The notes below the pieces were generated by a model. It had not been told where the DNA came from and searched no databases. It was given only the letters and a program-made list of their open reading frames with translations. A DNA stretch of 64,000 nt from Candidatus Obscuribacterales bacterium (GTDB lineage Bacteria; Cyanobacteriota; Vampirovibrionia; Obscuribacterales; Obscuribacteraceae), in NCBI GenBank assembly GCA_965228855.1, contig CBDDIJ010000003.1, positions 3,168,001 to 3,232,000 on the forward strand, given 5' to 3'. Positions 43,334-62,202 of the stretch are shown here, one piece after another. The stretch's first letter is position 1; the number at the start of each line of letters is the position of its first letter. The position numbers and the translations under genes were made by a program.

Positions 43334-43407
43334 CTGCCCGTAGCCCAGTTGGATAGAGCGCATGGCTACGAACCATGAGGTCGGAAGTTCGAGTCTTCCC
43401 GGGCAGG
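43334..43407 (+). tRNA. tRNA-Arg(ACG), integration target; CCA not encoded
   Basis: Cloverleaf: acceptor CTGCCCG/CGGGCAG, D arm GCCC..GAGC, anticodon stem CATGG/CCATG with loop CTACGAA, T arm GGAAG-TTCGAGT-CTTCC. Confidence 0.96.
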
Positions 43408-43435
43408 CTCTTTTTAGACAATTGAGTGTATCGCA

Positions 43436-43454
43436 AGTTAGCAACGAGTTAGCA
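43436..43454 (+). promoter_or_regulatory. Putative integrase arm-type sites, attL side
   Basis: AGTTAGCA x2 at 11-bp spacing, mirrored at 62001-62019. Confidence 0.65.
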
Positions 43455-43523
43455 GCACGTGAAAGCAACATCGTTGTGTGTCACCACGGGCGATATCACC
43501 GACACTGGGAGCAGATTCATTGA

Positions 43524-44549
43524 ATGTTAGAAGAAGGCATTGGGCGAACGACAGAGATTGATGCGCACGGTCATGTTACGCCAAGACACACGCTCGAAAA
43601 GATGGCGTCTGCCGTAAACGCTCCTGAAGGTGCGCAGGTCAATCTAATCAATCATGATTGGAGCATACCGCCAATCGGTAAGGTTATCAGGGCTGCGGTA
43701 CGGCCTCTGGACGACGGCTCCGAAGATTTCGCATTGCACCTTACCTTTGAGCGGTTTGAGGGACGCAATACGATTCAACTTCCAAGTGGAACGTCACTTG
43801 TTGTTCAAGGAAGCGAGAATGATGTTCGTCCATTTAGTTTTACGCAGCGGGACTATCAGCAAAATCTTGTAAGCCTGGTACTGGAGGCAAGAAACTTTCC
43901 CACAGTGCAAGAGTTGAAGTCTTTTAAGCAGGAGATTGACACCTCACCAATTTCTTGCCAGCTCGTCATTCAGCATGAGAAAGATCTACTAGTAACACCA
44001 AGTCTGCTGTTCCTACTCGGATACGGTTTCTTGGGCTGGTATGGGCTAAAAGTCAGCTCGAAGGTTGTAGACAAAATCGCCGATAAGCACGCAGAAAAAA
44101 TAATTGAAAACACCAATCAACTTATTCAGTTGTCGAAGCAGGCGGTAATCAGTTTCAAAAAACATCGAGGTGAGGCGGCAAGTACGCCCATGTTCCGGCA
44201 CCAGATTCAAGGTGACCCGATTGTAGAATTGGTCTACAGAGGAGAAGATGAACATTGGGCAAAATTAGGATTCTCGCAAGAAGCGCTTGAAGCAGCATTT
44301 GATCAAGCTCGCGAACTCAAGGAGCATGCTAACGCTGCCTACGTTCAATTTGTGTTTGACGATAAATGCCTGTGGAAGTTAAATTGGGCCGCTACAGACA
44401 AGGGTGAGATCGTCGCTAGCGAATACGCCCTCTCCATGAGAGACAGTTTGCTTCGAGAGATTGAAGAAGAGTGTAGATCTGAAGGAAGGACTGTGGGTCT
44501 ATCACCAGCCTACGTACCAACGGAAATAGAACTGCGTGAGAAATCTTAG
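43524..44549 (+). CDS. Hypothetical protein with phage prohead-protease-like termini and a central hydrophobic helix
   Basis: N-terminal TTEIDAHG...LINHDWSIPPIGKV and C-terminal GLSPAY..IELREKS resemble HK97-type maturation protease motifs; central LLFLLGYGFLGWYGL helix. Confidence 0.6.
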   Translation: MLEEGIGRTTEIDAHGHVTPRHTLEKMASAVNAPEGAQVNLINHDWSIPPIGKVIRAAVRPLDDGSEDFALHLTFERFEGRNTIQLPSGTSLVVQGSENDVRPFSFTQRDYQQNLVSLVLEARNFPTVQELKSFKQEIDTSPISCQLVIQHEKDLLVTPSLLFLLGYGFLGWYGLKVSSKVVDKIADKHAEKIIENTNQLIQLSKQAVISFKKHRGEAASTPMFRHQIQGDPIVELVYRGEDEHWAKLGFSQEALEAAFDQARELKEHANAAYVQFVFDDKCLWKLNWAATDKGEIVASEYALSMRDSLLREIEEECRSEGRTVGLSPAYVPTEIELREKS

Positions 44550-44717
44550 CGCTCCTCGCCAGGGTTTCTAGAAAACATACTTTTCCATTTAGCAAGCCCG
44601 ATGCCATCACGGGTGATACCGATTTCGAGACAGGCAGACCTATCGATATCACAAGAGCTTAAGACCTCCTTCCCTGTGCGCTATAATAGGCGCGCTAGTT
44701 CACAAGTGGTTGTTGAA

Positions 44718-45122
44718 ATGAATCATTGGTTGCTTTGTCTTCCGCGCGCAGACATGGAACACTGTATCAAGATCGGTACTTTCGGTCTCAATAGGAAATA
44801 CATGTTAGGACAAGTCCGCGTTGATGACGACATTGCGTGCTGTGCCGGAAAAGGCGAATGGATGATAGTCGGCATTGGCAAAGCGTCTAGCGAGTATTTT
44901 ATAGATGATCGGAAAAAGTTTCTGGGCAACGGCCTGTTCCCCGACCGATTCGAATTTAGAGCGAAGCAACTAGCAAGCTCTAACGAGGTTTCCTTAATTG
45001 AAATTCTTGACAAGCTTTCCTTTGTTAGTAACATCGCACACTGGTCTGTGTACTTCAGGAACGGTATCGTCAAGATCTCCGATCATGACTGGGATCTGAT
45101 AGCGTCATTGGTCCGGAAGTGA
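44718..45122 (+). CDS. EVE domain protein (PUA-like modified-base reader)
   Basis: MNHWL..., GIGKASSEYF, FPDRF, LSFV...W..YFR.G..KISDHDWDLI. Start at ATG 44718. Confidence 0.8.
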   Translation: MNHWLLCLPRADMEHCIKIGTFGLNRKYMLGQVRVDDDIACCAGKGEWMIVGIGKASSEYFIDDRKKFLGNGLFPDRFEFRAKQLASSNEVSLIEILDKLSFVSNIAHWSVYFRNGIVKISDHDWDLIASLVRK

Positions 45123-45361
45123 CATCTCAATATCGATTGTCCGATATTGATTTCTTCGTCCGAGAATATGTTGCAAACGCGTTGATAATAAATCACGCCA
45201 CCATAAGTGGTGTTATTTTGTTTGAAAAATAGATCGTACAAAGAGAGGTTTCCATCGGCATCTTCGGGGATGGATGGTTTTCCGATGCGAGAGTACAAGG
45301 TATCCATTTGGATTGAGTTGTTGTATACACATTATTCGGGAACAAAGCACAGTGACAACAA

Positions 45362-48300
45362 ATGAGGCGCGCGACAGTGAGTCCGCCTAAGAAAAAGAAT
45401 CCCAAGAAACCATCCAATAAAAATGCTGAAAGCTCGAAACAGCGCGGAACATCTTCTGCTGCACGAAGGGGCCTTGTTGCCGAGACTGGAATTAAGTACC
45501 CTCCCATAGCGATCGAAATATCTAGCCTCAGTTCGTCTGCCAAGAAGAAGTTTGCCAAGTCACTCGAAAAATACCTGGACAATCTGGAGCGGCTTGTTAG
45601 TGAGAGTAGTCGCTCACATCGTTTCGCGATGTTCTTTCAAGAGATCTTCGGAGTTGAAACTGAGCTAATCGCAAAGTACACGACTGGAATAGAGAAGAGC
45701 CTTCGAGTAAAAAACGATGATCAAATATTGAGAGGTCGTGCAGACAATCTATTCGGCAACTTAATCATTGAGTTTGAATCCAAGATACCAGACAAGCTGA
45801 ATGAAGCAATAGAGCAGCTAAGAAGATACGTAGCGATTATTTGGTCCACCGAGCAGTTGAATGAGAGAACACCTTTTCTTGCGCTCGCCACTGATGGTGC
45901 TCGATTCTATATGTACTCCGCGACGGCTGATCAAACCAAGGCGTTTTTGAGTCCAGATGACGTTGAGCTTACCGAAGTAGACTACGTAGATTGGACTTCG
46001 CTCAATGCCGATGATGTATGGATGTGGGTTGACCGCTACTTCTGGCGAGAAGAGCCGATGATCCCGCAGACCAACACAATAGTTCGCGACTTCGGGATCG
46101 GAAGCCATGCGTTCAAAACCATCACGAATGTTTTGATGAGCCGATGGCAAAGCTGCAAATCAAAAAGCTCTTTTGATGTCGTTTATGATAGTTGGGAGAA
46201 GTATCTTAGGATCGTGTATGGCGAAACGGTCGGAGCCGATGAGCTGTTTATAAGGCATACATACCTAGCCACTTTTGCAAAGCTGCTCTCGTGGGTTCAT
46301 ATCAGCGAGAGCACGCACTCCCCTTCACTTGAAGAAATAAATGAAGTAATTAGTGGCGACTACTTCAAGAAACAAGGAATCGAAAATTTCATTGAGGAGG
46401 ATTTCTTCTCCTGGATCGTTAGAAGTGAAGCCTTATCTGACGGTATTAAGATCTGCAAGTGGTTGCTCAGCATTCTTCGAAAGTACGACTTGAGTCGACT
46501 CTCAGAGGATGTTCTCAAGTCGCTTTACCAAGAACTTGTCGATCCGCAAGCAAGGCGCTACCTCGGTGAATTCTACACACCAGATTGGCTGGCTGACAAA
46601 ATCGTATCTGGAGCATTGCAAAAGAAGCCGGAAGCAACAGTTTTGGATCCGACGTGCGGCTCTGGGTCCTTCCTCTATCTGGCGGTGAGACGCAAACGAG
46701 AACTTTTGGGAGAATCACAAGATACACTCGCCCATGTATTTTCGAGCGTTTGCGGAATTGATATCCACCCACTGGCAGTAATCATTGCGAAAACAAACTT
46801 CATTTTGGCGCTTGGCGGTCTCCTCGCTAAAAGAAAACAATCGGTCACTATTCCTGTCTATTTGAGCGACTCAATTCGCCTTCCAGAGAAGGGGCAGATG
46901 TCCGTTTTCTTGCAAGTCCCCGGATTCAAAGTCACCTTAGAGGGAACCGAAGTCTTCTTGCCAGAAGAGTTCGTTGAGGACTACAACCTTTACGATCAGA
47001 CAATCGAACTGGCGCGAGAGTATGCCAGGCAGCACGAGAAAAAGCCCATTGACGTAACCTCGTTCAAAAGTTTTCTCGAAGTTTCAAAATACCCAAAACT
47101 AAGTGATGACCAACTTGTCCGATCCGCGTTTGAAATTGCGAAGGTACTCAAAGACTTCATCGACAACGAGCGAGACTCAATTTGGTCGTATGTACTCAAA
47201 AACATCTACAAGCCGCTCTTCCTGAAAAACAAATTCGACTACATTCTAGGAAATCCACCATGGCTACCCTATCGGCTTATGGAGAGCCAGTATCAAAAAT
47301 CCCTCAAAGAGCAAATCGTCAGGCAGTACAAACTATACTGCGGCAAGGCAGAGATGATGACCGCTATGGAAGTCGCAACCCTGTTTTTGCTACGTGCAGC
47401 AGATCTCTATCTTAAGAAGGGCGGCGAGATTACTTTTGTTCTCCCCCGCTCAATTTTCTCTGCCGAACAACACGATAGCTTACGGAGGAAATCCTTCAAG
47501 CTCTTCGAGAACACAGATCAAACCGTTGATTGGTGCGAAATTTGGGATTTGAAAGACGTCAAACCAATTTTCAGATTTCCCTGCTGTGTGCTTCGTGCAG
47601 AGAAAATCGATTCCGATCCAAACCGCAAGCACACGCCGACACCAACACTCACATTCAGCGGGCGACTTCCAAACCGAAATTTGAAACTCTCTGATGCACA
47701 AATTCACTTGAGCCACCGAAGCGAACAATTGCAAACGCAATTGATCGGAAAACGCTCTTTCTGGGACACCAATACCACCACCGTTACAAATTTAGGGCGA
47801 AGCGCGTATTTTGACAAATTCGCAGAGGGAGCGACTATCGTTCCTCGGTGCTGCTGGTTTGTGACCATTGGCGCCACCAAGCTTGGTATCAATTTGAAGT
47901 GTCCAGCAATAGCGAGTGAGCCCCATGCGATGGCGACTGCAAAGGACGCATACAAAGGTGTTAGTATCAAGGGCACCGTAGAGAATCAGTTCCTGTACGG
48001 CACGATGACTGGTTCGGAAGTTATTCCTTTCGGCTCAACAGGAATGAGAGTCGTGCTCCTACCCCTACTACGAAAGAATGGAATTAGTAAGATTTTTGAA
48101 AGTGCTGATGCCAGATCATCAGGATTTCTCCACTTATCAAAATGGTTGCTTCAGGTTGAGAAAGTCTGGAGCGAACGACGTGGTGCAAAGGCCGGGAAGA
48201 TGACCATTTACAAGCGCATAAACCACAACAATGGTTTAACGCGTCAAAAGACAGACGCTCAATATAGAGTGGTATACAACGGCGCCGGTAAAAACATTTC

Positions 48301-48739
48301 TTGTGCAGTCATTGAAAAACAGAAGGACATGAGTACAAACATCAATGGCCAAGACATATCGTTGTCGGGGTTCATCGCGGACTGCAAACTAATTTATTTT
48401 GAAACGGATAATGCAAACGAAGCGTTCTACCTGGCAGCATTTTTAAACTCGTCAGAGGTCAACAAGCTGATTAAGCCGATTCAAAGCCATGGGGAACACA
48501 ATCCGCGAGACATTCACAAAAAGCCGTTTGAATTGCCAATACCAAAATTCGATCCCAAAGATCAAACCCACATTCGTCTTGCCAAGCTGTCGCGAGCAGC
48601 CACCGACAAGATTCGAAAGTGGTCCAAGTCAACGAATCTGTCAACGCAATCAATAGCGAAAACTCGTGCCCAGGCTAGGAGTCTAATTACTTCGGAACTC
48701 GAAGAGATCGACAGTATTGTGAAACCACTACTAAGCTGA
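45362..48739 (+). CDS. Type IIG-like fused restriction endonuclease / N6-adenine methyltransferase
   Basis: N-terminal GRADNLFGNLIIEFE nuclease-like motif, LGEFYTPDW, VLDPTCGSGSFL (motif I), GNPPW (motif IV), C-terminal TRD-like region (YLAAFLNS, LPIPKFDP). Confidence 0.9.
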   Translation: MRRATVSPPKKKNPKKPSNKNAESSKQRGTSSAARRGLVAETGIKYPPIAIEISSLSSSAKKKFAKSLEKYLDNLERLVSESSRSHRFAMFFQEIFGVETELIAKYTTGIEKSLRVKNDDQILRGRADNLFGNLIIEFESKIPDKLNEAIEQLRRYVAIIWSTEQLNERTPFLALATDGARFYMYSATADQTKAFLSPDDVELTEVDYVDWTSLNADDVWMWVDRYFWREEPMIPQTNTIVRDFGIGSHAFKTITNVLMSRWQSCKSKSSFDVVYDSWEKYLRIVYGETVGADELFIRHTYLATFAKLLSWVHISESTHSPSLEEINEVISGDYFKKQGIENFIEEDFFSWIVRSEALSDGIKICKWLLSILRKYDLSRLSEDVLKSLYQELVDPQARRYLGEFYTPDWLADKIVSGALQKKPEATVLDPTCGSGSFLYLAVRRKRELLGESQDTLAHVFSSVCGIDIHPLAVIIAKTNFILALGGLLAKRKQSVTIPVYLSDSIRLPEKGQMSVFLQVPGFKVTLEGTEVFLPEEFVEDYNLYDQTIELAREYARQHEKKPIDVTSFKSFLEVSKYPKLSDDQLVRSAFEIAKVLKDFIDNERDSIWSYVLKNIYKPLFLKNKFDYILGNPPWLPYRLMESQYQKSLKEQIVRQYKLYCGKAEMMTAMEVATLFLLRAADLYLKKGGEITFVLPRSIFSAEQHDSLRRKSFKLFENTDQTVDWCEIWDLKDVKPIFRFPCCVLRAEKIDSDPNRKHTPTPTLTFSGRLPNRNLKLSDAQIHLSHRSEQLQTQLIGKRSFWDTNTTTVTNLGRSAYFDKFAEGATIVPRCCWFVTIGATKLGINLKCPAIASEPHAMATAKDAYKGVSIKGTVENQFLYGTMTGSEVIPFGSTGMRVVLLPLLRKNGISKIFESADARSSGFLHLSKWLLQVEKVWSERRGAKAGKMTIYKRINHNNGLTRQKTDAQYRVVYNGAGKNISCAVIEKQKDMSTNINGQDISLSGFIADCKLIYFETDNANEAFYLAAFLNSSEVNKLIKPIQSHGEHNPRDIHKKPFELPIPKFDPKDQTHIRLAKLSRAATDKIRKWSKSTNLSTQSIAKTRAQARSLITSELEEIDSIVKPLLS

Positions 48740-48798
48740 ATCACCAAGGGCATCCTGCCAGTTCCGCGAAAAATTATCGAAGAATGCGCACCGCGCAA

Positions 48799-50052
48799 TC
48801 ATTTAACCTGACCGTGATCAAATACAGGCAATGGCTGACCCATGTACACGCTCAGATCCATTATGATCTCGCTCACGCCCGGTGGTAGTTTGTCATACTT
48901 GTCGCGTGTCAAATCGCCAAGAATCATTTTGTCGCTGATGCTTGAACCGCTTGATTGAATCAATTCAGCCTCGCTAGCTTTTCCAGTTCGGTCGATTTGG
49001 AACCGAACCTTGAAAGTCTCTCGATTCTTCGTCGCAAGTCCACCGAATCGAATATTTCGATGCATCGTCTTACTGAGCCACTGGCTCAAATCTGTCTTGA
49101 TGAGCCCGGGTCTGTCAGGCTGAAATAGAGCCCCTTCCCGTAATGGCGAATTGAGACCTGGTCTCAGTCCCACCAGCTCAATCACTCCGTCAGACGGATT
49201 GTAGGACGAATCCTGAAACGCCATGTCACACTTCACAAGGTATGAAAGCTCTGACGCACAAATGCGCTTCATCGCTTCCTCTCCGACTGAGGCCGCCGTT
49301 TTGTCTTTGCCATGGCGCATCATCTGAATGTTGAACAGGGCATCGTCTGTATCAAGACTGAATCGGCAACCAAGCAGCAAGCAACCCAATGACCGCTCTT
49401 TATCTCCTTCCTTGGCCAATAGAAAACCGAGTTCATGCCATAGCCGCGACCACCGCGGATCAAGCTGTACGGCTTCAATGAAATGCGCGCGAGCAGCAGA
49501 GAACTGTTCCAAGGCAACCTCAGTTTCAGCAAGATAGCCGAGCGGATAAGACCATTTCGGATACATCGCATGGGCCATCTGAAAACCCGCAGCGGCTTCG
49601 TTCAACAACAACTCCCTCCGGGCCCCGGAACTCTTCTGTCCGGTTGCGAGAGTGTTGATTGATTTCGCATACATGCGAGAAGTGTCCAGATCAATCCGGC
49701 TTTGCGGTCTCCTAATGAACGCGGCTTCAATTGCGTCATCAGTTTGCTTTTGACGTTCCACATCGTTGAACAATGAACTCCCGTTCCATAACAGCGAAGC
49801 ACGAATGATACGATCCACCGCTGGCGGCACATTGCTTTTCCTCAATATGATTGGTTCGTGAGGTTTGGGAGGCGGATATAATGGAGACGTCTCGTTTGCT
49901 GCTGCGGCATTTGCAGGGAAGGATATGGCTATAAGACAAGCGACAATTTGCTGAACAATTTTAGTGCCAGGTCCGTTCATTCTGCGCATTTCCAGTATTC
50001 CCTGTAAATAGTGATTCTTGAAATTCTTCATGTGCGATAGGTTGCACTGCAC
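48799..50052 (-). CDS. Secreted TPR protein with TonB C-terminal-like domain
   Basis: Signal-like segment, TPRs, VRFQIDRTG...LIQSSGS..SD motif. True start is probably downstream of 50052. Confidence 0.65.
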   Translation of the reverse strand: MQCNLSHMKNFKNHYLQGILEMRRMNGPGTKIVQQIVACLIAISFPANAAAANETSPLYPPPKPHEPIILRKSNVPPAVDRIIRASLLWNGSSLFNDVERQKQTDDAIEAAFIRRPQSRIDLDTSRMYAKSINTLATGQKSSGARRELLLNEAAAGFQMAHAMYPKWSYPLGYLAETEVALEQFSAARAHFIEAVQLDPRWSRLWHELGFLLAKEGDKERSLGCLLLGCRFSLDTDDALFNIQMMRHGKDKTAASVGEEAMKRICASELSYLVKCDMAFQDSSYNPSDGVIELVGLRPGLNSPLREGALFQPDRPGLIKTDLSQWLSKTMHRNIRFGGLATKNRETFKVRFQIDRTGKASEAELIQSSGSSISDKMILGDLTRDKYDKLPPGVSEIIMDLSVYMGQPLPVFDHGQVK

Positions 50053-50205
50053 TTCGAACTTCCCTTGCTCTCCGAAAATGGGATACAGACGCCATCAACA
50101 TTTCCAAAATTTTGTTCCCGTCGAGAATTCCTCTCTCACATTTCGGCAATGGCGGGCACCATATTTGATATCACCTTGCTCACGATGAAAGGTAAATATC
50201 CCTTG

Positions 50206-50712
50206 CTACTTAGTTCGGCGCCTATTCCCCAGAGCCTGACTTTGTCTCACTTCTCGCAACATTGCCAGGTCGCTCTCGTCGGGCTCCAAAATACAGATCT
50301 CAACATTCCACATATTGATCGCGGCGTGCTTGACCCAAACTTTCATCCCCTTTTCCGCAGCAAGCAAAATAACTAAAGTCGCATCGTGCCATGCTTCCGA
50401 ATGATGCTTCAGCGTTACCAACTTCAGAATGTCGCACGCGATCTTGTTTGGTTGAGCACCACGTAGACCATCAATCCCAGCATAGACCTCCACAAGAATC
50501 TTGGGGTCATGCGAGATTCCATCGACCTCCACGCGAACCTTATCAACATCGCTGATCAGAATAGACTGCGTGCGGAAGCCTTTGCCATTGCGTTCAAAGC
50601 AAACGCCCCTCAACTGCTCGAACCTATCGAGAAGCCTTTCGGCAATTATGCCTTGAAGAGAGGAGTCGCTAAGATCGGGCATCGCATCACACAATAGCAA
50701 CTGCACGGACAC
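50206..50712 (-). CDS. Small PD-(D/E)xK-like nuclease-fold protein
   Basis: VEVDG....ILVEVYA...AQ..KIACDILKL pattern. Confidence 0.55.
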   Translation of the reverse strand: MSVQLLLCDAMPDLSDSSLQGIIAERLLDRFEQLRGVCFERNGKGFRTQSILISDVDKVRVEVDGISHDPKILVEVYAGIDGLRGAQPNKIACDILKLVTLKHHSEAWHDATLVILLAAEKGMKVWVKHAAINMWNVEICILEPDESDLAMLREVRQSQALGNRRRTK

Positions 50713-50747
50713 GCAAAACGTTCCATGGAGATGTTCGGATTATACGA

Positions 50748-50836
50748 AAGTAATTACTTCCGGACTGATTGGCATCCATATACCACGCCGCCGGAAGTTA
50801 TTACTTCTGGAAAGTTATAACTTCCAGATATTTAAT
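50748..50836. promoter_or_regulatory. Three palindromic operators (AAGTWATWACTT) and -10 box of the XRE gene
   Basis: AAGTAATTACTT 50748-50759, AAGTTATTACTT 50795-50806, AAGTTATAACTT 50812-50823; TTTAAT 50831-50836 lies 6 bp before the GTG start. Confidence 0.8.
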
Positions 50837-50842
50837 GTCTAG

Positions 50843-51067
50843 GTGCCTAAACCTCAAGACCCCGTTAATACCTTTGGTCAGATTCTTCGTCAGCTCCGAG
50901 AAGAAAATGACTGGACGCAAGAAGACTTAGCAGCTGAGCTAAGCGTTGACCGCGCCTACGTTTCGCAACTGGAGAGAGGTCTTCAAAATCCGAGTTTGCG
51001 GGTAATGGTAAAAATCGCAAAGGTGCTTTCGGTGGATATAACGTTCGCAGGCATCGCGCTGAAGTAG
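50843..51067 (+). CDS. XRE-family HTH regulator, R-M controller (C-protein)-like
   Basis: FGQILRQLR...TQEDLAAELSVDRAYVSQLERGLQNPSL. Confidence 0.88.
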   Translation: MPKPQDPVNTFGQILRQLREENDWTQEDLAAELSVDRAYVSQLERGLQNPSLRVMVKIAKVLSVDITFAGIALK

Positions 51068-51084
51068 CTTTGCGAAGACTATTC

Positions 51085-51912
51085 TCAAAACACGTTTTTG
51101 TCGCGAAGCTTGCCGGTGCTGTGATTGCACATTAGGTCCAGAGTGCCCGTTTGCCCGTCCCTGTTCCTGGCGATGATCAGTTCAACTTCCCCTCTCACAA
51201 GACTTTCAGGGTTGTAGAACTCATCTGAATAGATAAATCCGACAACATTTGCCACGCCCGCTTCTCGCAGATCGAGCAGTCTTGGTCGTTTGTCATTGCG
51301 TTCTTCCAGATCGCTCGCTACATGACAGGCGGCCACCACAGCGACATTGAGTTCAACGGCAACACTCTTAAGTTCTTCCAGATGCAATGAAACAGACTTT
51401 TCACCATCGGACATATGCGCGACAGGATCGACGAACACCAGCTTCACTTCGGTTCCTTCTTGAATTAGTTTCTTACACTCCTCGGAGATTGCGCTGGCGC
51501 CAATGAATGTAGAGTCATGAACATGAATCGGTGAGTTGCCGAGTTCCGAAAATGCAGTGTCCAATTTGAACCAGTCCGTGTCGTAGAGATAGCCTGTCCG
51601 AATTCGATTTGAGTCGACTTCCGCGAGGGTTCCCGCCATTCGCTGCACAATTTGCTCACGCGATACATCCAAGGAAAACCAAGCGATTGGGATTCTCTGG
51701 CCGACTCCGATGTTCAGCGCGAAATTCAAGCACAGTCTCGTCGTGCCCACACCAGGTCTGGCTGCTACGATCAGCAGCTCGCCTGCCTGCAATCCACCTG
51801 TGAGGCAGTCATAGTCAACAAAACCAGTAGAGAGCCCGGTCAGGCTCTTGCATTCAAAACGCCGTCGAATTTGAGCATACGAACTGGTAACTATGTCTTT
51901 CGAATGCAACAT
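51085..51912 (-). CDS. Stand-alone DnaB helicase C-terminal domain with degenerate catalytic motifs
   Basis: TGLSTGF..YD.LTGGLQAGELLIVAARPGVGTT, KRPRLLDLRE, ELIIARNRDG; no N-terminal DnaB domain. Confidence 0.88.
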   Translation of the reverse strand: MLHSKDIVTSSYAQIRRRFECKSLTGLSTGFVDYDCLTGGLQAGELLIVAARPGVGTTRLCLNFALNIGVGQRIPIAWFSLDVSREQIVQRMAGTLAEVDSNRIRTGYLYDTDWFKLDTAFSELGNSPIHVHDSTFIGASAISEECKKLIQEGTEVKLVFVDPVAHMSDGEKSVSLHLEELKSVAVELNVAVVAACHVASDLEERNDKRPRLLDLREAGVANVVGFIYSDEFYNPESLVRGEVELIIARNRDGQTGTLDLMCNHSTGKLRDKNVF

Positions 51913-52069
51913 ATCGTTCCCCTATATACCGATCATTTCGACAGCGGTCACCACATATGGTGCTTCTTCGGAATAATGCGCAAACGAAAAGCATAACAGA
52001 CGTGGTCTGGCGAGCACAATTACTCCTGATCGCTATTGACCATAACACTCCTGCAAATAGCAAATCGGT

Positions 52070-52699: not shown

Positions 52700-52738
52700 C
52701 AGTAGACACCTCGCAAAAACGTTTAAATCATACCAAAT

Positions 52739-54247: not shown

Positions 54248-54297
54248 CTTCATTGCCGCCGTTCAAATGACGGCGCCATTAGCGGTGGTCTCATAGG

Positions 54298-55740
54298 TTA
54301 GTCGTCAAAATCATCAATGCAACCACCTCTGATGTACTGATAGTCTTTGAATGTTGAACGAGTGGTAGTTCGCTTCCAGACAAGCTCTTCACCAAGACCA
54401 AGGTGAACAAGCAGAAGCCCATTGAGAAGGGCACCAAGCGCGATGTTGGCACCAGCAATTTTCGTTGGTGACAATTTCTTTGCCCGCAACTTATCGGTGA
54501 AGTGCGTGTAATAGTTTCTCGTGTTCACAATTTCTCGCACCATGTCCCAATCGCCGACGAAGGACTCCTTGGTATCGGCCGGAAGCGAGTTCAGGAGATC
54601 GCTGAGCATGTCCCGCTGAGACAATTGATTTCCGTGTTCGATATTCGCCTTCAGCTTACCTTCGAACGAAGATTCGAGACCTTCAGGAATCAACTCCAGC
54701 AATTTTTTCAATAGAACGTCGTACTCTTCTTGCTGCATGTACACCTTTGTCCGAGTTGCACGATGAAACGCCTCCAGTGCCTGACACCACATCACAAAAT
54801 TTATCTCTGTGTGGAGCGCTGGATAACTCAGGAGGCTCGCAAAGAGAAATACTACGGACTGAAGACCTTCTGAACTGTCGTACCAATTTTTAACTGAGTT
54901 CTGAAATTGATTGGGATTCAACTCTGAAAGCCGTAGAAGCAGCCCATCTTTCTTGCGTCGTTTCCCCCATTCCTTTTCAATCGAAAAGTAGAGTGGCAAT
55001 AATTCTCCGGTCGGTGATGAAATTTGCGCCCGCAGCGGAGAGCAAGGGACACCATGAACCATTTCGAGGTAGTTTCCAAACATGGAAGCGAGGCGCAAAA
55101 GTTCCTGGATGACCATCGGTTTTCTCGCTTTGATTTCTACCCAAACTTCCTTGTTGACAGTAAGCTTTGAGCGCTCATTGCTCACGGTTCGCACGAACAG
55201 AAGATTTATTGCATAACCGCCCATATCAACGGACTGAAGAATCTCTTCCGAGGGCTCTGTTTTGTTCTCCTTCTGCTTTTCTTCGGGCAAAGCCGATTCC
55301 AATAGGTCTGAATACAGAAATCGCAAGGAGGAAGCTTCGAAGTTGTCCGCTTCAATGTGCGCGCCGATCACAACTCTTCTTGCATAAAACCGACTGTGAT
55401 TATAACCAGGGAATGTCATATTAGCCGAAGTCAGATCCGCGCCAATGATGGAGAAGGGTAAGCCAAGAGCAGAAATTCCGTGCAGGACGGCAGCCTGTTC
55501 AGCGATGCGTCGTCCTTCTCCGTTGGTGAATTCAGTCTGACCCTTTCGGGAACTCCACAGCCAATCTTGTAGCGATAATGACAACTGCGCCTTGGAGCCT
55601 TCCACCTTCAAAACGCCAGGAGCCTGATTCTCCATATCGCCTGGAAGCCACCAGTAGCCTTCAAATTCAAAGTCGTCAAACAACGTATACTTGACTGCGC
55701 CTAGTTCCGCTGCAACACGTTGACTTAGATTTGCCGTCAT
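54298..55740 (-). CDS. ApeA-type HEPN ribonuclease (ApeA N-terminal domain + HEPN)
   Basis: EGYWWLP....PGVL N-terminus, QALEAFHR, HEPN RxxxxH motif RNYYTH. Confidence 0.85.
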   Translation of the reverse strand: MTANLSQRVAAELGAVKYTLFDDFEFEGYWWLPGDMENQAPGVLKVEGSKAQLSLSLQDWLWSSRKGQTEFTNGEGRRIAEQAAVLHGISALGLPFSIIGADLTSANMTFPGYNHSRFYARRVVIGAHIEADNFEASSLRFLYSDLLESALPEEKQKENKTEPSEEILQSVDMGGYAINLLFVRTVSNERSKLTVNKEVWVEIKARKPMVIQELLRLASMFGNYLEMVHGVPCSPLRAQISSPTGELLPLYFSIEKEWGKRRKKDGLLLRLSELNPNQFQNSVKNWYDSSEGLQSVVFLFASLLSYPALHTEINFVMWCQALEAFHRATRTKVYMQQEEYDVLLKKLLELIPEGLESSFEGKLKANIEHGNQLSQRDMLSDLLNSLPADTKESFVGDWDMVREIVNTRNYYTHFTDKLRAKKLSPTKIAGANIALGALLNGLLLVHLGLGEELVWKRTTTRSTFKDYQYIRGGCIDDFDD

Positions 55741-55892
55741 GGAAAGATCCTCCAGATGCCCAGGCGGATCATACTACCGGCTGTTCACAAATTCTGAAAG
55801 AACCATGACTGAAGTCCGTGCAATTTCATTCAAGGCGCTTGTGAACCAATGACCACCTAGCATTGAGATGTTCCGCTGTTCACATGAACGAT

Positions 55893-56303
55893 TCAGTCAC
55901 GTGGCGAAACGCTGCTTGACTTCGAAAGAGAGTTAGTAGCCATCTGGACTAGAAGTTTCTCTGCAAATCTTCTCAATTCACGGTCGCTTTCTTTGGTGCC
56001 CTCATCGCAGCTTTCCGGAGTATTCTCAACTCTAGGGTGACCTGTTAGTCGATCAAGAATTTCCAACTTCAGCCTCTGCAGTTTGCAGGCGGAGTTGATC
56101 AGATTCGCATAAGCAATCGAGGCATTGTAGGCAGAGATCTTCTTTTCTTTCAATTCAGTCAAGACAGTGTCAAATACGAAGGTCTCAATCTCCTCAATCC
56201 TGGATTGAGCACGACCAACACGCGCCATTGTGTCGGTAAGTTCGTTAGACAGAGCCTTGTAGAGCCGTATGACATCAGGGTTTGTAGCGGTAGTTCCTTT
56301 CAC
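55893..56303 (-). CDS. Helical hypothetical protein, last gene of the replication operon
   Basis: 136-aa ORF with GGAGGA RBS upstream. Confidence 0.65.
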   Translation of the reverse strand: MKGTTATNPDVIRLYKALSNELTDTMARVGRAQSRIEEIETFVFDTVLTELKEKKISAYNASIAYANLINSACKLQRLKLEILDRLTGHPRVENTPESCDEGTKESDRELRRFAEKLLVQMATNSLSKSSSVSPRD

Positions 56304-56365
56304 TTGGTTTTCCTCCGTGTACTACGATTAAAGCACGCGGGAAATGAAGAAGTTCTCCATTCCAT

Positions 56366-56408
56366 TCCCCTCCCCTCCCCTCCCCTCCCCTCCCCTCCCC
56401 TCCCCTCC
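56366..56408 (-). repeat. (TCCCC)8 / (GGGGA)8 pentanucleotide microsatellite
   Basis: Eight perfect units at 56366-56405 plus TCC. Confidence 0.95.
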
Positions 56409-56427
56409 TTTGCCACCATATTTGGTG

Positions 56428-57321
56428 TCATATAAAAAACGCACGAATCAGATCTCTTACTGTATGGACGTTGTTCGGTCCGCCATACACGCAACAAAAC
56501 TTCGAACCGTCAAGAGTTATTCGCAAGTTGTCTTTAGACCGATCATGTCCCTCCATCGCACAAAGAGGACATTGAGCAACCCAGCCGTTTCCAACTCTAC
56601 GTCGATCTGAGACGACATCCAATACATTAAAGCGCTTCGAAGAAAACCTCCTCTTCAAAATCGGACGGACTAATTTGCTGCGATCTCGTTGCTTATCCAA
56701 ATGACGCAAATACGAAGCAAGCCGCATTACGTGCTTGGCACTGTTCAGTTGCTGTTGTGTGAACCATAGCAATTGACTGTCAACATCTATAGCATTGCAA
56801 TTCTCGAACAAGCTCCTTCTATCACCGGCATCTGGCTTTCGGTGTATTCCCAGCGGAACGCGGAGGCAGGAACCGACTTTGTCCACACTGGATTGTTTGG
56901 GGAAGAACTCAAGCGCATCCGGTGGCAGTCCAGCATGCGCCATGACTTCGTCATTGAACCTCCTCAAGTCCGTTGCAGGCAGCGTTTGATCAAAGAATAG
57001 CCATAGATGCCCCTCCCTACCTTCTCTGCGCGCGTCAACAAGGCCGTGCAAACCTAAGCCGCTAACAACCTGTTCGATTTTGGCAAGCCTACCATCATCA
57101 TGGTCGCTGTCCCAGGCACACCATCTACAGTGCCCATTTTTATCCAGGGATGGGAGAGCGACAGTAATGCTTCCCTCAAAGTGTTTCCGGAATAATTCCA
57201 TGGTTACCGGTTCTTCTACAAACCTATAGCCAAAGAGAGCTTTGAACCTCCACTGCTGAAGATAACCATGGTTGCTATTCACCAGTTGGGAAGCGAACGA
57301 TTGAATCAAATCATTCTTCAT
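56428..57321 (-). CDS. Archaeo-eukaryotic primase (TOTE-type AEP domain) with C-terminal zinc-binding domain
   Basis: HFEGSITV, CAWDSD (DxD), GHLWLFF, EFFPKQ, LRVPLG; CPLC..GHD...C. AGGAGA RBS before ATG 57321. Confidence 0.8.
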   Translation of the reverse strand: MKNDLIQSFASQLVNSNHGYLQQWRFKALFGYRFVEEPVTMELFRKHFEGSITVALPSLDKNGHCRWCAWDSDHDDGRLAKIEQVVSGLGLHGLVDARREGREGHLWLFFDQTLPATDLRRFNDEVMAHAGLPPDALEFFPKQSSVDKVGSCLRVPLGIHRKPDAGDRRSLFENCNAIDVDSQLLWFTQQQLNSAKHVMRLASYLRHLDKQRDRSKLVRPILKRRFSSKRFNVLDVVSDRRRVGNGWVAQCPLCAMEGHDRSKDNLRITLDGSKFCCVYGGPNNVHTVRDLIRAFFI

Positions 57322-57640
57322 ATGCGATTCTCCTATCTCTTTAGTTAACGGCTTGGTCTCAGCTTGGTTGTGCAAATCCTGCGCAATAACATGTACTGCA
57401 CGGGTCGAGATGTCTCCGGACGCGTGCTCAATTCAGATGTGCAATCACTCGCCGAGGAGCTCTCCTTTTCCGAATGCTCATTGATCAGCGGCGACCAAAA
57501 GCGCACGTGCCAGTTCCAATAACAATTGCAAGTGAGATTGAAACACGCGCTGTTCGGTCGCTTTACCTATGCAAGTGGTTCACTGCATAAGATTTGCACG
57601 GTTGCATAGTCCCCAGATACGAGAGCACCCAGGAGCCTCG

Positions 57641-59383
57641 TTAGTCCTTCGCCCCATTACTGTCCGATGTATCATTTCCTCTCGTCCGCAGCTTGCGCGG
57701 CAAGAATCCACGCACTTTTTTGGAATTCTCAATCGCTCTTTTGGCTGCCAATTGAGTAAAGTTTTCACAGCCAATGGCGGCTTGCTCGGCGACCATCTCT
57801 TTTTGAGCTTGTGAGAATTTTGGACCCGATTTGAAGCGCTGCTCGCCGCCAGGATCGACACTGGCAACCTCGATGAGACCAAGCTCCCGCCATGCCGCTA
57901 CATAGCTGTCCACGGTTCTCTTACTCTTTACAAGAAGTTGGCGCATTTCAAGCCGACTGAGAGTCTTTTTCTTGTAACCAAATCCTTGTTTCGCCGCATC
58001 CAGATCATCGTCATCAAGAATCTCGATGATTTTGTAAAATGCGTTTTCATGAGCTTGTCCGCTTGCTTGGTAGACGCTCGGGACACAACATTCGAAAACA
58101 TCAACCACCTCATTGTAATCCTCAATTGTTGCAACCAACACCTTCCGTTCTTCTATGATGTTGACCTCTCGATTGTGCTGGTTCAGAAGAGCGTGACTTG
58201 CGATTAATACCTTCAAGAGATCTACTCGACGGCAATCGTCTTCATGGAGACTTTCGCGATCGCCCTCCTCATGAATTTGCCTTAGGAATGACATTTCAAT
58301 ATCATTCAGCGCATCTGAGTTGCTACTATCTAAAGATTGAAGTCTCGAAAAGAAACAGTTCCATCCTTTCCAAATTTCCCGGCATCGCTCTACCGAAACC
58401 TGCTCGGCCGCGCCCAGCTTGATGGCCATTACCTTTACTAGAGACTCCATGTTGTGAGTGATCTCGATCCAGAAGCTTCGATTTCTCCACTGTTCATCCC
58501 ACTTTAACGGATGCGTAACTGTCGTCGCGACGTGGTGTACTGGGCCTTTCAAAACATACTGAACTGAACGCCGGCCCTTGCCAGTGACCTCCTCGCTTGA
58601 CTTGTGTATGTAGACACCTTTGGTCGTAAGCTGCCATATGATCTGTAGCATCTTGAAGGGTTGGACGACGGCTGGCGGATTCAGTTCGTCATGGACAACA
58701 ATCTTGTTTGCAAGCCCTTCTCCATCAGTCCCACCAGCGAACACAAGACCCAACTCGCTGCAAGAAGATTGTCTTTCGATAACGCCGCTGTCACCGCCAG
58801 TGGTGCAATCTAAAAATCGAAGGATCTGCTCGACATATGCACTCTTTCCAGCAGAACTCGAACCATAGACCATGGTCTGTGTCCCCATCAGAGTGCCAGT
58901 TTTCTGCCATGCCACCAAGTTGAGTTTTTGGAAGCCGATTACGAGCAGCGCCATCTTTGTAAGCAATGCGGATGCCCAATAACCGGTAAGATTGAAGTCT
59001 TGATGAAACCGCGAGGAGATTCTCCCTTCGGCTTCAAGTTCTTGAGCAAACGCATTTTCCATCTCAGTAAACTGAACACCCTCCCGCTGTGCCTGGTCAT
59101 CGGAAACCCTCGTGTAAATCCGTCTCAGTTTGCAATAAGACTTGTCGATCTCTGTGATCAGCTTTCCCGTTTCTTTGCTCCAGTGCGAGAAATGAGCTTT
59201 AACCTGATCGTCGCTTTGACCCGCGACGATCATCTCGACAATTTGGTGCTCCAAATCTGCTTCCGAAAGCGTTGACGATTCTACGCACTCCGGTTCTGTT
59301 TCAACTGCTTCACCAGCGATCATTTTCTTTGCATCCTCAAGTGTCAAATCCGGTTTGCTTGAGTCTGACTCATTCGTTTCCAT
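57641..59383 (-). CDS. P-loop AAA+-like replicative helicase/ATPase with C-terminal winged helix
   Basis: Walker A GSSSAGKS, Walker B IVVHDE, NRSF arginine-finger-like motif, SKRTVDSYVAAWRELGLIE wHTH. Confidence 0.7.
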   Translation of the reverse strand: METNESDSSKPDLTLEDAKKMIAGEAVETEPECVESSTLSEADLEHQIVEMIVAGQSDDQVKAHFSHWSKETGKLITEIDKSYCKLRRIYTRVSDDQAQREGVQFTEMENAFAQELEAEGRISSRFHQDFNLTGYWASALLTKMALLVIGFQKLNLVAWQKTGTLMGTQTMVYGSSSAGKSAYVEQILRFLDCTTGGDSGVIERQSSCSELGLVFAGGTDGEGLANKIVVHDELNPPAVVQPFKMLQIIWQLTTKGVYIHKSSEEVTGKGRRSVQYVLKGPVHHVATTVTHPLKWDEQWRNRSFWIEITHNMESLVKVMAIKLGAAEQVSVERCREIWKGWNCFFSRLQSLDSSNSDALNDIEMSFLRQIHEEGDRESLHEDDCRRVDLLKVLIASHALLNQHNREVNIIEERKVLVATIEDYNEVVDVFECCVPSVYQASGQAHENAFYKIIEILDDDDLDAAKQGFGYKKKTLSRLEMRQLLVKSKRTVDSYVAAWRELGLIEVASVDPGGEQRFKSGPKFSQAQKEMVAEQAAIGCENFTQLAAKRAIENSKKVRGFLPRKLRTRGNDTSDSNGAKD

Positions 59384-59415
59384 GCCTGTTTCCCCTTCTT
59401 ATTCGTAAGGTAAGC

Positions 59416-59667
59416 CTAGTCCTGCGATGTTGAAGTCTTGATTTGTTGCTCGACCCAGTCTTCCAGGTCCGCTCTTTGGTACCGCACGATCCTGCGAGAC
59501 AGTCTGCAAAAACGCGGTCCATTGCCCCTCATCCGACTAACCTCAAGAAACCGTACGCTGACACCAAGAAGCTTTGCCGCTTCTGCAGTTGAAAGTAGCA
59601 ACGAGTCAGCACCAGTGTCACAACCGAGATCCACGGGACTGCTGCCTTTCTCCTTCGAATCATCCAT
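59416..59667 (-). CDS. Excisionase / AlpA-like HTH (recombination directionality factor)
   Basis: LLSTAEAAKLLGVS...R..GNGPRF.....VRYQRADLEDWV; GAGGAGG RBS before ATG 59667. Confidence 0.88.
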   Translation of the reverse strand: MDDSKEKGSSPVDLGCDTGADSLLLSTAEAAKLLGVSVRFLEVSRMRGNGPRFCRLSRRIVRYQRADLEDWVEQQIKTSTSQD

Positions 59668-59792
59668 ATCTGTCCTCCTCTCCGGCTTCACCAAGAGCCG
59701 ACAGGAAAGACTCTGACATTCGAAACCGGCCTTACCAATGGTGCGGCCGGAGTCCATAAGTTCTGTAACGCTCAGCGCCGAAGCTGTGCAGG

Positions 59793-60500
59793 CTAAATTT
59801 TTCCTTCCTCTTTCAACCTTCGAATGACACGCCTGACAGAGTCTATATCTTTGTATAAGGGCCTAATTCGCTTGAGAATTACTGCTGCCAGCCTATGCTG
59901 GCTCGTCTGAGGTGCCAACACCCGATAGAGTCGAAGAACCTCCGCCTCACGCGTTTCTGCGTTGGCCCTGTTTGTAGTTTGCGCTTTTTTACTATTAGCT
60001 CGGTTCTTTTCACATATTGTTCTCCCGAGAGGAGCGAGTCTCGCGTCCTCCCGGCGAAGTATCAGTTGATAATCCGAATAGAGATGGAGCAATTGAAAAT
60101 GAAACTCGTCACCCTCGCCGCCAAGAGATTCTGCAATCAACGAACGATAGTACAGATCGAAGAAACTCTGCATGTCTTCTTCAGAAATGCACCGAATCTT
60201 CGAATCCAACAACTGCTGTGCCGACCTTTGCATGCGGCACGCTTCCATCATAGCGGTGGCATACGTTCGAATTTCCATAATCATCTCAAGCTTACTCTTT
60301 GCTGTCCATGGACCGTGCTGAACTAGTTCCTCGAATTCAGGGTCATCAACTATGTCAAAGTCGAAGGGTCTAGGCATCCCTTTTGCGATTTCCCTGAGGC
60401 GTCTGTTTTGAATGCTACATAAGCCTTCGAGACGCGCATCGAAAGCTTCTGTCCACCATGGCGGTCTATTGCCTTGACGTTGCTCGTTCAAGCCGTCCAT
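59793..60500 (-). CDS. Hypothetical helical protein between integrase and excisionase
   Basis: 235-aa ORF with GGAG RBS; basic C-terminal HTH-like end. Confidence 0.7.
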   Translation of the reverse strand: MDGLNEQRQGNRPPWWTEAFDARLEGLCSIQNRRLREIAKGMPRPFDFDIVDDPEFEELVQHGPWTAKSKLEMIMEIRTYATAMMEACRMQRSAQQLLDSKIRCISEEDMQSFFDLYYRSLIAESLGGEGDEFHFQLLHLYSDYQLILRREDARLAPLGRTICEKNRANSKKAQTTNRANAETREAEVLRLYRVLAPQTSQHRLAAVILKRIRPLYKDIDSVRRVIRRLKEEGKI

Positions 60501-60623
60501 TCTTTTCTCCCAATTGTTGCAGCAGCGCGAGACGGGAATATCGCCTCCGATAAATCAAGTCGTGAAAGTCTATCAGCATTTCCTGACGAATCGATGCTGT
60601 TTCCATTTCTATTTCGAAAGTTT

Positions 60624-60682
60624 AAAAACGGTAGGAGCAAGGTAGCAACGCCTTCCTACCGCATTCCTACCGCATTCCTACC
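60624..60682 (-). terminator. Terminator-like hairpin after the integrase, with a triplicated 5' arm
   Basis: Minus strand: GGTAGGAATGC GGTAGGAATGC GGTAGGAAGGC ... TCCTACCG TTTTT. Confidence 0.6.
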
Positions 60683-60719
60683 ATTCACTACTGCCGCCAG
60701 TGTAGCACCGTCTCTAGTA

Positions 60720-61928
60720 TCATCCCGATTTGCTTCGAGGCAGAACAATGTCGGAATTTGAGTCCGTCATCAGTCCCGGAGCGTGTTCACCCGCTATTCG
60801 CATAAGCTTTTGACCATGCTGCTCAAGGGCCTCCCTGACGTTGTCCTGACCAAATCGAGCGTATATCGCCGTCGTCGATGGATTTTTGTGATTCAAGATT
60901 TTTCCTATGAGATGCAAGCTGTTTCCCGACTGCGCCAGCCAGGAACCGAGTGTGCGGCGCAAGTCATGCAAACGAACATCTTCCACGCCAGCCGATTTCC
61001 TGATTCGATTCCAAATCTTCTGTATATTGACCAGGTGATGCCCGCGTTTTTCCCCTGGCAACAGGTAAGGATTGTTTTCTTCCTTAGGTAAGGTGAGGAG
61101 TATTGCTAGTGCTGGCGCACTAATCGGAACATAATGAATGGTTCCGCTCTTGGTGTCGGGCAGTCTCAGTTCTTGCCTCTCCCAATCAACGTCCTCCCAT
61201 TTTGCTCGAAGCAATTCATCCCGTCGAACGCCAAGCAGAAGGTATAACCATATTGCGGTCTTGCCGAAAAAGTTAGTTTCCTGAGTGATTGCGGCGGCGA
61301 GCCGAGGCAACTCATCCTGTTTGACCCACCGGTCTCGCTTAATTTCTTTATATGGCTTTATACCTCTGGAAGGGTTCGAATGTTCGTCAGGAAGAAAGCC
61401 CCAAGTCTTAGCTAATTCGAACATTTTCGATATCTGTTCAACGAGACGATTTGCGGCATAAGGATGGTCTCGTCCAATCGAAAAGTGGAGGTGCGCCACA
61501 TCGGCCCTAGTGATTGCTCCCAGGCGACAGGTTCCAAAGGCAGGAACGAGATACTTTTCAATGCGTCGCTGGTCCTCTCGCCAAGTTTTCTTGTGCTGTT
61601 TCGCGTATCTCTCCAAATAGATTGCGCCGAACTCCCTGAAGGTAATGGTTTTTCCTTCCGTGCTTTCGAACGGGTCTTTGCGATCAATTAGCGAAGCAAG
61701 ATGTTTTCTTGCCCGATCTTTCGCTTGATCAAGAGTTAAAACACCGTATTTGCCTATCACTTTAATGTGCTGACGCCCTTGATGCCTATAAGACAGCACA
61801 AACGATTTCTTTCCTGTCGGATAGACCCGCACGCCAAAGCCAGGCAAAGCGCGATCCCAATGAATTAGTTGAGATCCCTTGTCTTTAGAGTATTCTAATT
61901 TGTCGATAATACTTTTAGTCAGAGTCAT
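60720..61928 (-). CDS. int: Tyrosine integrase, P4-like, with N-terminal arm-binding domain
   Basis: WD..LPGFGVRV.PTGKKSF arm-binding domain; catalytic residues in GVRRDEL, TKSG, HDLRRT, LNH, TTAIYA. Confidence 0.96.
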   Translation of the reverse strand: MTLTKSIIDKLEYSKDKGSQLIHWDRALPGFGVRVYPTGKKSFVLSYRHQGRQHIKVIGKYGVLTLDQAKDRARKHLASLIDRKDPFESTEGKTITFREFGAIYLERYAKQHKKTWREDQRRIEKYLVPAFGTCRLGAITRADVAHLHFSIGRDHPYAANRLVEQISKMFELAKTWGFLPDEHSNPSRGIKPYKEIKRDRWVKQDELPRLAAAITQETNFFGKTAIWLYLLLGVRRDELLRAKWEDVDWERQELRLPDTKSGTIHYVPISAPALAILLTLPKEENNPYLLPGEKRGHHLVNIQKIWNRIRKSAGVEDVRLHDLRRTLGSWLAQSGNSLHLIGKILNHKNPSTTAIYARFGQDNVREALEQHGQKLMRIAGEHAPGLMTDSNSDIVLPRSKSG

Positions 61929-62000
61929 ATGATCAAATCCACGAAACCGTTATGAATTCTCGCTCTCGAAGAGTCCTTTCAATTAAAACATTCCGCGGAG

Positions 62001-62140
62001 AGTTAGCACAAGGTTAGCAGCTCAGCTGATAGATCATGTACCTCACATGATAGAACCTGATATTTACAATTCGCCACAGTCGGCTTGTGGAGCAGTTTTG
62101 CGATAGCTCGTGATAGAAGGTGATACGCTGTGATACTGAA
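62001..62140 (+). promoter_or_regulatory. attR accessory sites: arm-type pair and phased TGATA array
   Basis: RGTTAGCA at 62001 and 62012; YGATA at 62027, 62048, 62058, 62101, 62111, 62121 and 62131. Confidence 0.65.
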
Positions 62141-62160
62141 AGATTTAGCCGAAATCAGCC

Positions 62161-62202
62161 CTACGAACCATGAGGTCGTACGTTCGAGTCGTACCGGGCA
62201 GG
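62161..62202 (+). repeat. attR: displaced 3' half of tRNA-Arg
   Basis: 38/42 identity with 43366-43407; retains an intact T arm and acceptor 3' strand. Confidence 0.93.

Follow-up and report, generated by a model that had tools for sequence, protein, structure and literature searches.

The stretch analysed here, a window of 64,000 nucleotides (G000:C3:3168001-3232000), comes from the genome of an Obscuribacterales bacterium, a non-photosynthetic relative of the cyanobacteria (G000; 8.2 Mb in 6 contigs, 95% complete). It contains an 18.8-kb element that is integrated within a tRNA-Arg(ACG) gene. This att-bounded element is real and intact. It belongs to a lineage-wide family of replicating islands, which is absent from the literature searched (main texts and abstracts, mostly open-access). 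From its architecture we lean towards reading the element as a replicating island that moves as a phage satellite, in preference to a tycheposon-like element, a hitchhiker of conjugative elements or a remnant. The comparisons used 103 other genomes of the host's family and 297 further genomes of the same class.

Attachment sites and the tRNA-Arg(ACG) target

The target gene was called by ARAGORN at 43334-43408 on the plus strand; we infer that its 3' half stems from the attP site of the element. The element lies between the copies of a 42-bp direct repeat, attL at 43366-43407 and attR at 62161-62202 (both plus strand), which are identical at 38 of 42 positions. Their first 18 bp (43366-43383 in attL) match exactly, and all four mismatches form two compensatory pairs in the T-stem; ARAGORN recognised the tRNA with either 3' end, that of the left or that of the right copy. 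A blastn search with the element as query found no third att copy in the 8.2-Mb genome.

Nine intact tRNA-Arg loci of relatives are informative on the origin of the two copies. Three of them (G002, G005 and G006; same genus) end in a sequence identical to attR (42/42), four are 40/42 to both copies and two are nearer to attL (40/42); an exact match to attL occurred in none of the nine. The region 3' of attR agrees with the terminator region after the G006 tRNA in 54 of 61 columns, and a terminator-like hairpin with a T tract, apparently the displaced one of the tRNA, lies just outside the element (62219-62259, plus strand). Because three of the intact 3' ends match the right copy and the G006 terminator region matches the sequence after it, attR is, on the sequences compared, the displaced end of the host tRNA, with a crossover placed within the 18-bp core. 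One caveat is that the same terminator stands after extra att copies in G002, so that elements themselves can carry it.

Just inside both ends of the element are paired GTTAGCA repeats (43437-43454 and 62002-62019, plus strand), and only one further such pair occurs in the genome. A similar motif was found 3' of the same tRNA in G004. These pairs are likely the arm sites of the integrase. The GC content is 0.480 within the element and 0.515 in the left 43 kb of the window. The complete att-bounded element in tRNA-Arg that the initial annotation had described is thereby borne out. As it had suggested, relatives were compared for an empty site. In G006 the distal flank matches about 1.2 kb 3' of the tRNA, which is close to an empty site. 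G007 holds other elements between common flanks (94.6% identity on the left, 95-97% in distal stretches 4-11 kb beyond attR). An empty-site junction was not found in the contigs. The G007 site is occupied by two different elements, one with a relaxase and a coupling protein; the helicase and the primase of our element were unmatched in that genome. The two cases named beforehand as counter-evidence, the same genes in synteny without att sites and a core that matches a truncated prophage or integrative and conjugative element (ICE), were not encountered.

Several observations concern the site more generally. The tRNA-Arg(ACG) gene is an integration hotspot: in G007, about 64 kb are taken up there by two elements in tandem, and G008 has at least four att copies. 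The T-stem variants at this gene differ by compensatory pairs, so that elements exchange the T-arm of the tRNA upon insertion. The second G007 element (L012:4542-13154) has a defence-rich cargo with NucS-like, deaminase and Mrr-like genes and an AAA + HNH pair. Paralogues of the genes right past attR (62252-63992) were found at C2:1.803 Mb and C3:247 kb, in both cases close to remnants of integrases; the genes are likely older island material. A second tRNA-Arg(ACG) gene is part of an array of 21 tRNA genes at G000:C3:724518-727973, and a smaller array lies at C3:1.53 Mb.

Core operon, replication module and element family

All six core genes are on the minus strand in the order that had been described initially, from the integrase to a 136-amino-acid (aa) protein. 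The tyrosine integrase with its arm-binding domain (60720-61928; PF00589, PF13356, phrog_1) is followed by a 235-aa protein without assigned function (59793-60500), which fills a variable slot between int and xis. Next are an excisionase/AlpA-like protein of the HTH_17 type (59416-59757), which matches PF12728 and phrog_66 and not AlpA PF05930, a 580-aa ATPase (57641-59383), an archaeo-eukaryotic primase (AEP) of the AEP-TOTE family (56428-57321; ATG start at 57321, longest open reading frame (ORF) from 57375) and the 136-aa gene (55893-56303). Between the last two lies a (GGGGA)8 tract (56366-56405, minus strand), the sole tract of at least five units in the genome; it is prone to form a G-quadruplex, and the public contigs of runs X1-X3 end there.

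The 580-aa protein matched no family in Pfam, PHROGs or NCBIfam apart from a spurious match to CcmH, and has 44 matching representatives among 1.84 billion. In the 38 of these that were aligned, the Walker A and B motifs and the arginines R302, R385 and R405 are conserved; one relative is fused to a Prim-Pol. A single-sequence fold was poor (pLDDT 37), and a model based on the alignment was used instead (pLDDT 86, pTM 0.79). Its top match, in Foldseek as well as in VIA, was to MCM AAA+ domains (Z 19.0, rmsd 3.8, 291 residues aligned), and it also matched Cch of the staphylococcal cassette SCCmec (Z 13.1, rmsd 4.1, 240 aligned) and Rep of the Staphylococcus aureus pathogenicity island (SaPI) SaPIBov1 (Z 9.7, rmsd 8.3, 304 aligned). 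A winged helix is located at about residues 440-535. With an AAA+ fold nearest to MCM, both Walker motifs and the conserved arginines, the protein probably is an MCM-like helicase of superfamily 6 (SF6); because other helix-2-insert ATPases also score against the model (BchI 14.9, RavA 14.5), helicase activity is attributed to it from fold and context. A profile search across the phylum gave matches in 131 of 401 genomes. Long ATPase matches occurred in only three other genomes; the remainder were winged-helix or P-loop noise and were left out of the count. In gut-type relatives of the same class (L044, L045), a zinc-finger/primase-like N-terminus precedes the MCM-like helicase in one fused protein of 628-792 aa.

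The AEP matches PF22548 with an E value of 1.6e-15; all 10 aligned members keep the acidic and histidine motifs as well as the Cys cluster at the C-terminus. The label of a TOTE-type AEP thus stands for the one domain, but a domain alone does not make a TOTE system; no further TOTE-named Pfam match was found among the ORFs of the element, and the AEP stands alone beside the helicase.

The 319-bp gap between the helicase and the AEP gene (57322-57640) holds eight TGCA-centred repeats, a number reached in 21 of 25,759 windows of the genome, for a motif that was chosen post hoc after inspection. In G090, which has the closest helicase relative (41%), the gap of 178 bp contains six TGCA, and the gaps of G114, G001 and G049 have other 6-7-mers in four to six copies each and in both orientations. 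No clear repeat cluster was seen in the G037 gap. The post hoc choice of the motif counts against an origin at this place, as does the layout in G082, which has no gap between the two genes, and in G008, where repeats follow only after the AEP. We consider the TGCA cluster an iteron-like candidate replication origin. Origins of SaPIs have 6-12 short iterons directly after rep, which are bound by the winged helix of Rep (PMC9371898).

Relatives of the AEP are present in 27 of the 103 other family genomes, and the claim of an undescribed element family in a poorly studied lineage agrees with this distribution. At 19 of the 25 AEP loci examined, a helicase-type gene for 430-650 aa lies directly upstream: five belong to the helicase family of the window, seven to DUF3987, two to DUF927 and five are unclassified. 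In the other six, the primase precedes a D5 helicase once, no such gene is found once, and four loci are broken or ambiguous. The helicase-before-primase order pointed out initially is the norm in the family, in which the helicases are exchangeable and the short repeats differ from element to element. Many of the loci sit at tRNA or tmRNA genes. The element of G114 has the full core order of the window including the 136-aa family, and in an element from a metagenome the integrase is 66% identical and the xis is related, and another large gene and an AEP are joined by a different cargo. The swapping of cargo around shared cores that had been expected was hence found both in relatives and in the metagenome.

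Mode of transfer and comparison with known islands

No ORF of the element matched capsid, terminase, portal, relaxase or type IV secretion system (T4SS) families (Pfam E≤0.05; PHROGs and NCBIfam E≤0.01), as the initial annotation had noted for most of these, and tail, holin and other phage structural families of these three collections were likewise without a match. The same scan does detect the relaxase and coupling protein of the G007 element. By these scans the element contains neither a relaxase, coupling protein or T4SS, by which ICEs and integrative mobilisable elements are defined, nor the terminase large subunit (TerL), portal, capsid or tail genes of a prophage.

The element resembles phage-inducible chromosomal islands (PICIs), their minimalist counterparts (PICMIs) and tycheposon-like islands, and it is not a PICI, P4 or PICMI member by the stated definitions. 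With PICIs and SaPIs it shares an integrase, a putative HTH regulator/excisionase and a primase with a AAA+ helicase of the self-loading type with a C-terminal winged helix (PMC10085698, PMC9371898). Like them, it has short repeats immediately behind the helicase gene and defence genes as accessory cargo, and it lacks phage structural genes; SaPI Rep2 is also SF6/MCM-like. In contrast to the order pri, rep, ori of SaPIs (PMC9371898), the order here is helicase, ori, primase. The element also differs from PICIs in a helicase family without Pfam model, in the lack of a recognisable small terminase subunit (TerS) or capsid-morphogenesis gene (the latter is missing from SaPIs, too), in a size of 18.8 kb versus a median of 9.5 kb and in an integrase at the tRNA-distal end (PMC10085698). 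Of the features that define PICIs, the integrase is present, the primase-replicase module is present by functional class in a different order, and the capsid morphogenesis gene is absent; the HTH_17 protein is a candidate for the regulator homologous to AlpA, MerR or Stl. The P4-like markers, the psu-delta-sid operon, epsilon and alpha, had no matching family in Pfam or PHROGs. PICMIs have a core of int, AlpA/PF12728 and primase-helicase, described without capsid remodelling genes (PMC10803314). The element agrees with it in the integrase and the PF12728 protein, and seven relatives of our element use DUF3987 like PICMIs. The helicase of the window, however, matches neither DUF3987 nor DUF5906 and is accompanied by a separate AEP gene; furthermore, the element lies in tRNA-Arg rather than next to fis, is three times larger and is found in Obscuribacterales rather than Vibrionaceae (PMC10803314). 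The split of helicase and primase has precedents in the pri-rep-ori arrangement of SaPIs and in AgaPP-AgaPH, where separate genes for an AEP primase-polymerase and an SF6 helicase have an integrase and defence genes nearby; there the primase gene comes first, the AEP is BT4734-like, the helicase is DUF3987, and a pAgo is present that is missing here (PMC11724360). The Cch module of SCCmec is another relative in structure (Z 13.1, as above).

If the element moves as a phage satellite, the integrase and the HTH_17 protein would carry out recombination between attL and attR within their 18-bp core, and the element would likely excise as a circle. The winged helix of the helicase would bind the TGCA repeats so that the helicase loads itself, and the AEP would prime synthesis; we predict replication in the manner of SaPIs with an own helicase, iteron origin and primase. 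The 136-aa family may engage the packaging motor of a helper phage, with the form that lacks the HTH as an oligomer partner or interference factor; alternatively, packaging may proceed without the 136-aa gene, as for PICMIs. In this way the element would likely spread as a satellite, and the host would likely gain protection against phages through the cargo.

The 136-aa helical protein that ends the core operon is an HTH-less member of a conserved family and our candidate for a TerS-like packaging factor. The family has 11 copies in 8 of the 103 other family genomes, with an integrase match at 10 of the 11 loci, and none in the 297 other genomes of the class. Its gene follows the AEP in G082, G003 and G114; one copy in G090 comes after an AEP fusion, those in G032 and G071 come after a Rep module of the rolling-circle type, and the remaining copies follow unclassified genes. 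Independent AEP loci from metagenomes, outside the profile, have it directly after the AEP in three of eight cases. Most copies have 182-214 aa with an N-terminal HTH_Tnp_1; those of the window and of L378 have no HTH and intact frames. Elements with a rolling-circle-type Rep (PF23343; L162:8051-11103 and L104:7210-9976) bear the gene, and in G032 a SIR2-like gene follows. The full-length forms of the family combine an HTH with a helical hairpin, a layout that TerS proteins have as well. The nearest named clusters in the Atlas were T5 TerS (0.87), DUF1804 (0.84) and Mu gp27 (0.82), all below 0.9 with low recognition, and serve as leads only. In PICIs, terS is located after the primase-replicase (PMC10085698).

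Direct tests of a TerS identity, made with shallow alignments, gave no homology support. With hhalign, the 136-aa family reached a probability of at most 1% against Mu gp27, HK97 TerS and those genes that precede TerL in prophages of the host's family; the value for Mu gp27, 0.11, was within the shuffled scores. The PHROG matches of the family were mostly to transposase HTHs, with one weak match to terS from one of 10 members (E 0.039). PDB profile searches returned HTH matches only, and searches of the own genome with PF11985 and PF08822 and tblastn against phages gave no support either. We consider a TerS-like function doubtful, though worth keeping as a working candidate.

Some of these tests, the transposase-like PHROG matches and the low hhalign probabilities, also weigh against transfer as a satellite, and other results do so, too. 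Most AEP elements do not have the 136-aa family. Neither an excised circle nor an empty-site junction was found in the contigs, and no member of the family was found among IMG/VR contigs (three queries) or annotated phages. TerL was not found in the own genome (three families searched in a 95% complete assembly) and was found in only 5 of the 103 other genomes (one family searched). The relaxase and coupling-protein element at the same tRNA in G007 indicates that conjugative hitchhiking occurs in the lineage. The satellite identity that the initial annotation had proposed thus gained nothing from the circle junction, from IMG/VR or from TerS and capsid homology. A joint of 43360 to 62173 in run X6 was rejected, with 17 foreign letters on its 24-letter side; the contigs of X5 and X6 cover parts of 50-62 kb and not 43.5-49.5 kb, too thin for use. 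Two matches in IMG/VR were only to a Cys cluster in phage proteins. Satellites of virulent phages do not need a resident helper (PMC10803314).

A tycheposon-like element or integrative plasmid, which excises and replicates and is moved by vesicles, transformation or unspecific packaging, is a rather unlikely alternative that nonetheless explains several findings. No packaging gene was recognised in the element, and 419 of 501 tycheposons consist of modules for integration, replication and cargo alone (10.1101/2020.12.28.424599). The 136-aa family would then be a regulator of transcription or copy number, which fits the scores of its full-length relatives as HTH_Tnp_1 and the negative TerS tests. 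Such a regulator would need the HTH, yet two natural copies (window and L378) do without, and the constant position of the family behind replication modules that are not related agrees better with a downstream function. The tycheposons of Prochlorococcus, of the same phylum, share with the element tRNA-targeting tyrosine integrases, tandem arrays with partial tRNAs in between, small modules for integration and replication, about 10 kb of cargo and the lack of conjugation or structural genes. They are defined by a hallmark gene set and an integrase clade, and the likeness here is one of architecture; their cargo is often for nutrient uptake, and the PICI-like ones are described as having no extra cargo (10.1101/2020.12.28.424599).

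Transfer as a relaxase-less hitchhiker via an oriT and the relaxase and T4SS of a helper, as in the iOriT class (10.64898/2026.01.13.699239), we consider improbable. Elements with relaxase and coupling protein occur in G007 at this very tRNA, and the own genome has them at another location, along with Trb-like genes on contig C4. However, C4 looks mixed and may be contamination, no oriT was seen (no search aimed at oriT was made), and satellites and SCCmec typically have a theta-type helicase-primase module with iterons, which such hitchhiking does not need. The least credible explanation is a remnant that no longer moves, either a prophage that was truncated or an island in decay, with the short DnaB (see below) and the HTH-less gene as pseudogenes: the DnaB without N-terminal domain and catalytic residues, the missing HTH and the unseen circle would fit it, but none of the core ORFs, the two att sites and the arm-like repeats is damaged, many genomes show the same compact layout, the short DnaB (G071, G115) and the HTH-less copy (L378) recur with open frames, and phage structural remnants are absent.

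Two regions of the own genome contain conjugation-related genes. One is a relaxase and coupling protein element at G000:C2:1834546-1838817 (L266), which is related to one at the G007 tRNA-Arg. In the other, G000:C4:44000-76000 (L265) on a 182-kb contig, Trb/CopG/TraG-like genes lie beside eukaryote-looking ORFs, which may reflect contamination or misassembly. The negative result for VirB4 in the own genome is unreliable, as a TrbE-like ORF is visible on C4.

Cargo genes and significance of the element family

The cargo of 10 genes (about 43500-55750) measures 12.3 kb, in line with the 12 kb estimated before. Its description as densely defence-like needs a qualification, as only two of the genes match defence effector models of PADLOC. 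The first encodes a Type IIG restriction-modification fusion of 1125 aa (45362-48739, plus strand; REase_MTase_IIG 4e-90, with Eco57I and N6_Mtase), in which nuclease, N6-adenine methyltransferase and specificity region form one chain with visible DPTCGSG and NPPW motifs. The second is ApeA (54298-55740, minus strand) with the domains ApeA_NTD1 and HEPN_Apea and an intact RxxxxH motif. A protein that cleaves tRNA in abortive infection is how ApeA has been described (10.64898/2026.01.26.701840). Both identifications are solid at the level of sequence: the full domain sets and key motifs are present in what are divergent members. We predict that the restriction-modification protein restricts phage DNA and that ApeA aborts infection. 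A third gene, for an XRE/HTH_3 regulator (50843-51067, plus strand), matches control-protein models and recurs in many elements of the family.

A stand-alone C-terminal domain of DnaB (275 aa; 51085-51912, minus strand) is a further cargo protein. The N-terminal domain is missing; the frame begins in the linker region and has a good ribosome site. The protein has lost the Walker A lysine, the catalytic glutamate, the Walker B context and the sensor glutamine. Among the 103 genomes there are two more short copies, one in G071, likewise dead, whose element further carries ApeA and the 136-aa family, and one in G115 with the motifs mostly kept; in a DnaB tree all three are long branches without resolved placement. 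We hypothesise a decoy or dominant-negative role; such a role was not described in the literature searched. The match of the host dnaB (G000:C3:2645894-2649082) is split in three inside a 1238-aa frame, suggesting inteins, and many relatives have frames of 800-1360 aa.

Other cargo genes are candidates for defence by neighbourhood. On the plus strand, an orphan protein of 341 aa with a hydrophobic segment (43524-44549) has two relatives in the family, and a 173-aa protein (44601-45122), which we take to be EVE-like, matches PRK00809/PRK02268 weakly below the cut-off and nothing in Pfam. On the minus strand are a 417-aa TPR protein (48799-50052) with a weak TonB_C match and a 58% relative in the cargo of a G008 element; a 168-aa protein (50206-50712), presumably PD-(D/E)xK-like as judged by eye, with plasmid relatives, one of which adjoins a restriction endonuclease; and a 209-aa protein (52070-52699) with a weak T5orf172 (GIY-YIG-like) domain (E 4e-4). 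A 502-aa TPR fusion (52739-54247, plus strand) has a relative in a tRNA-Arg island of G008 with a weak C-terminal match to DUF5677; the link of its own C-terminus to that family was rejected, as BLAST similarity to a DUF5677 protein was absent. A likeness of the N-terminal 85 residues of the 341-aa protein to phage prohead proteases, which we presumed although the catalytic serine motif is missing, was unsupported by hhalign with HK97 gp4 (a spurious 18 columns), PF04586, PF14550, PF10123 and PDB. Word-index searches returned only the query for the 341-, 168- and 136-aa proteins and genome searches found relatives, so that such blanks are not evidence of orphans.

The overall design is unsurprising, since satellite-type islands that integrate in tRNA genes and replicate are already known. 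What is new is a whole element family in a lineage for which the searched literature holds no paper on mobile elements, with an MCM-like helicase family that is invisible to Pfam, PHROGs and NCBIfam, so that profile-based satellite finders likely miss it. New are also the iteron clusters matched to the helicases and a conserved, uncharacterised gene at the position of terS. The dead DnaB domain, which recurs, offers a concrete candidate for a defence function. If the 136-aa gene does encode a packaging factor, satellites would be extended to a new class and a new marker would be gained.

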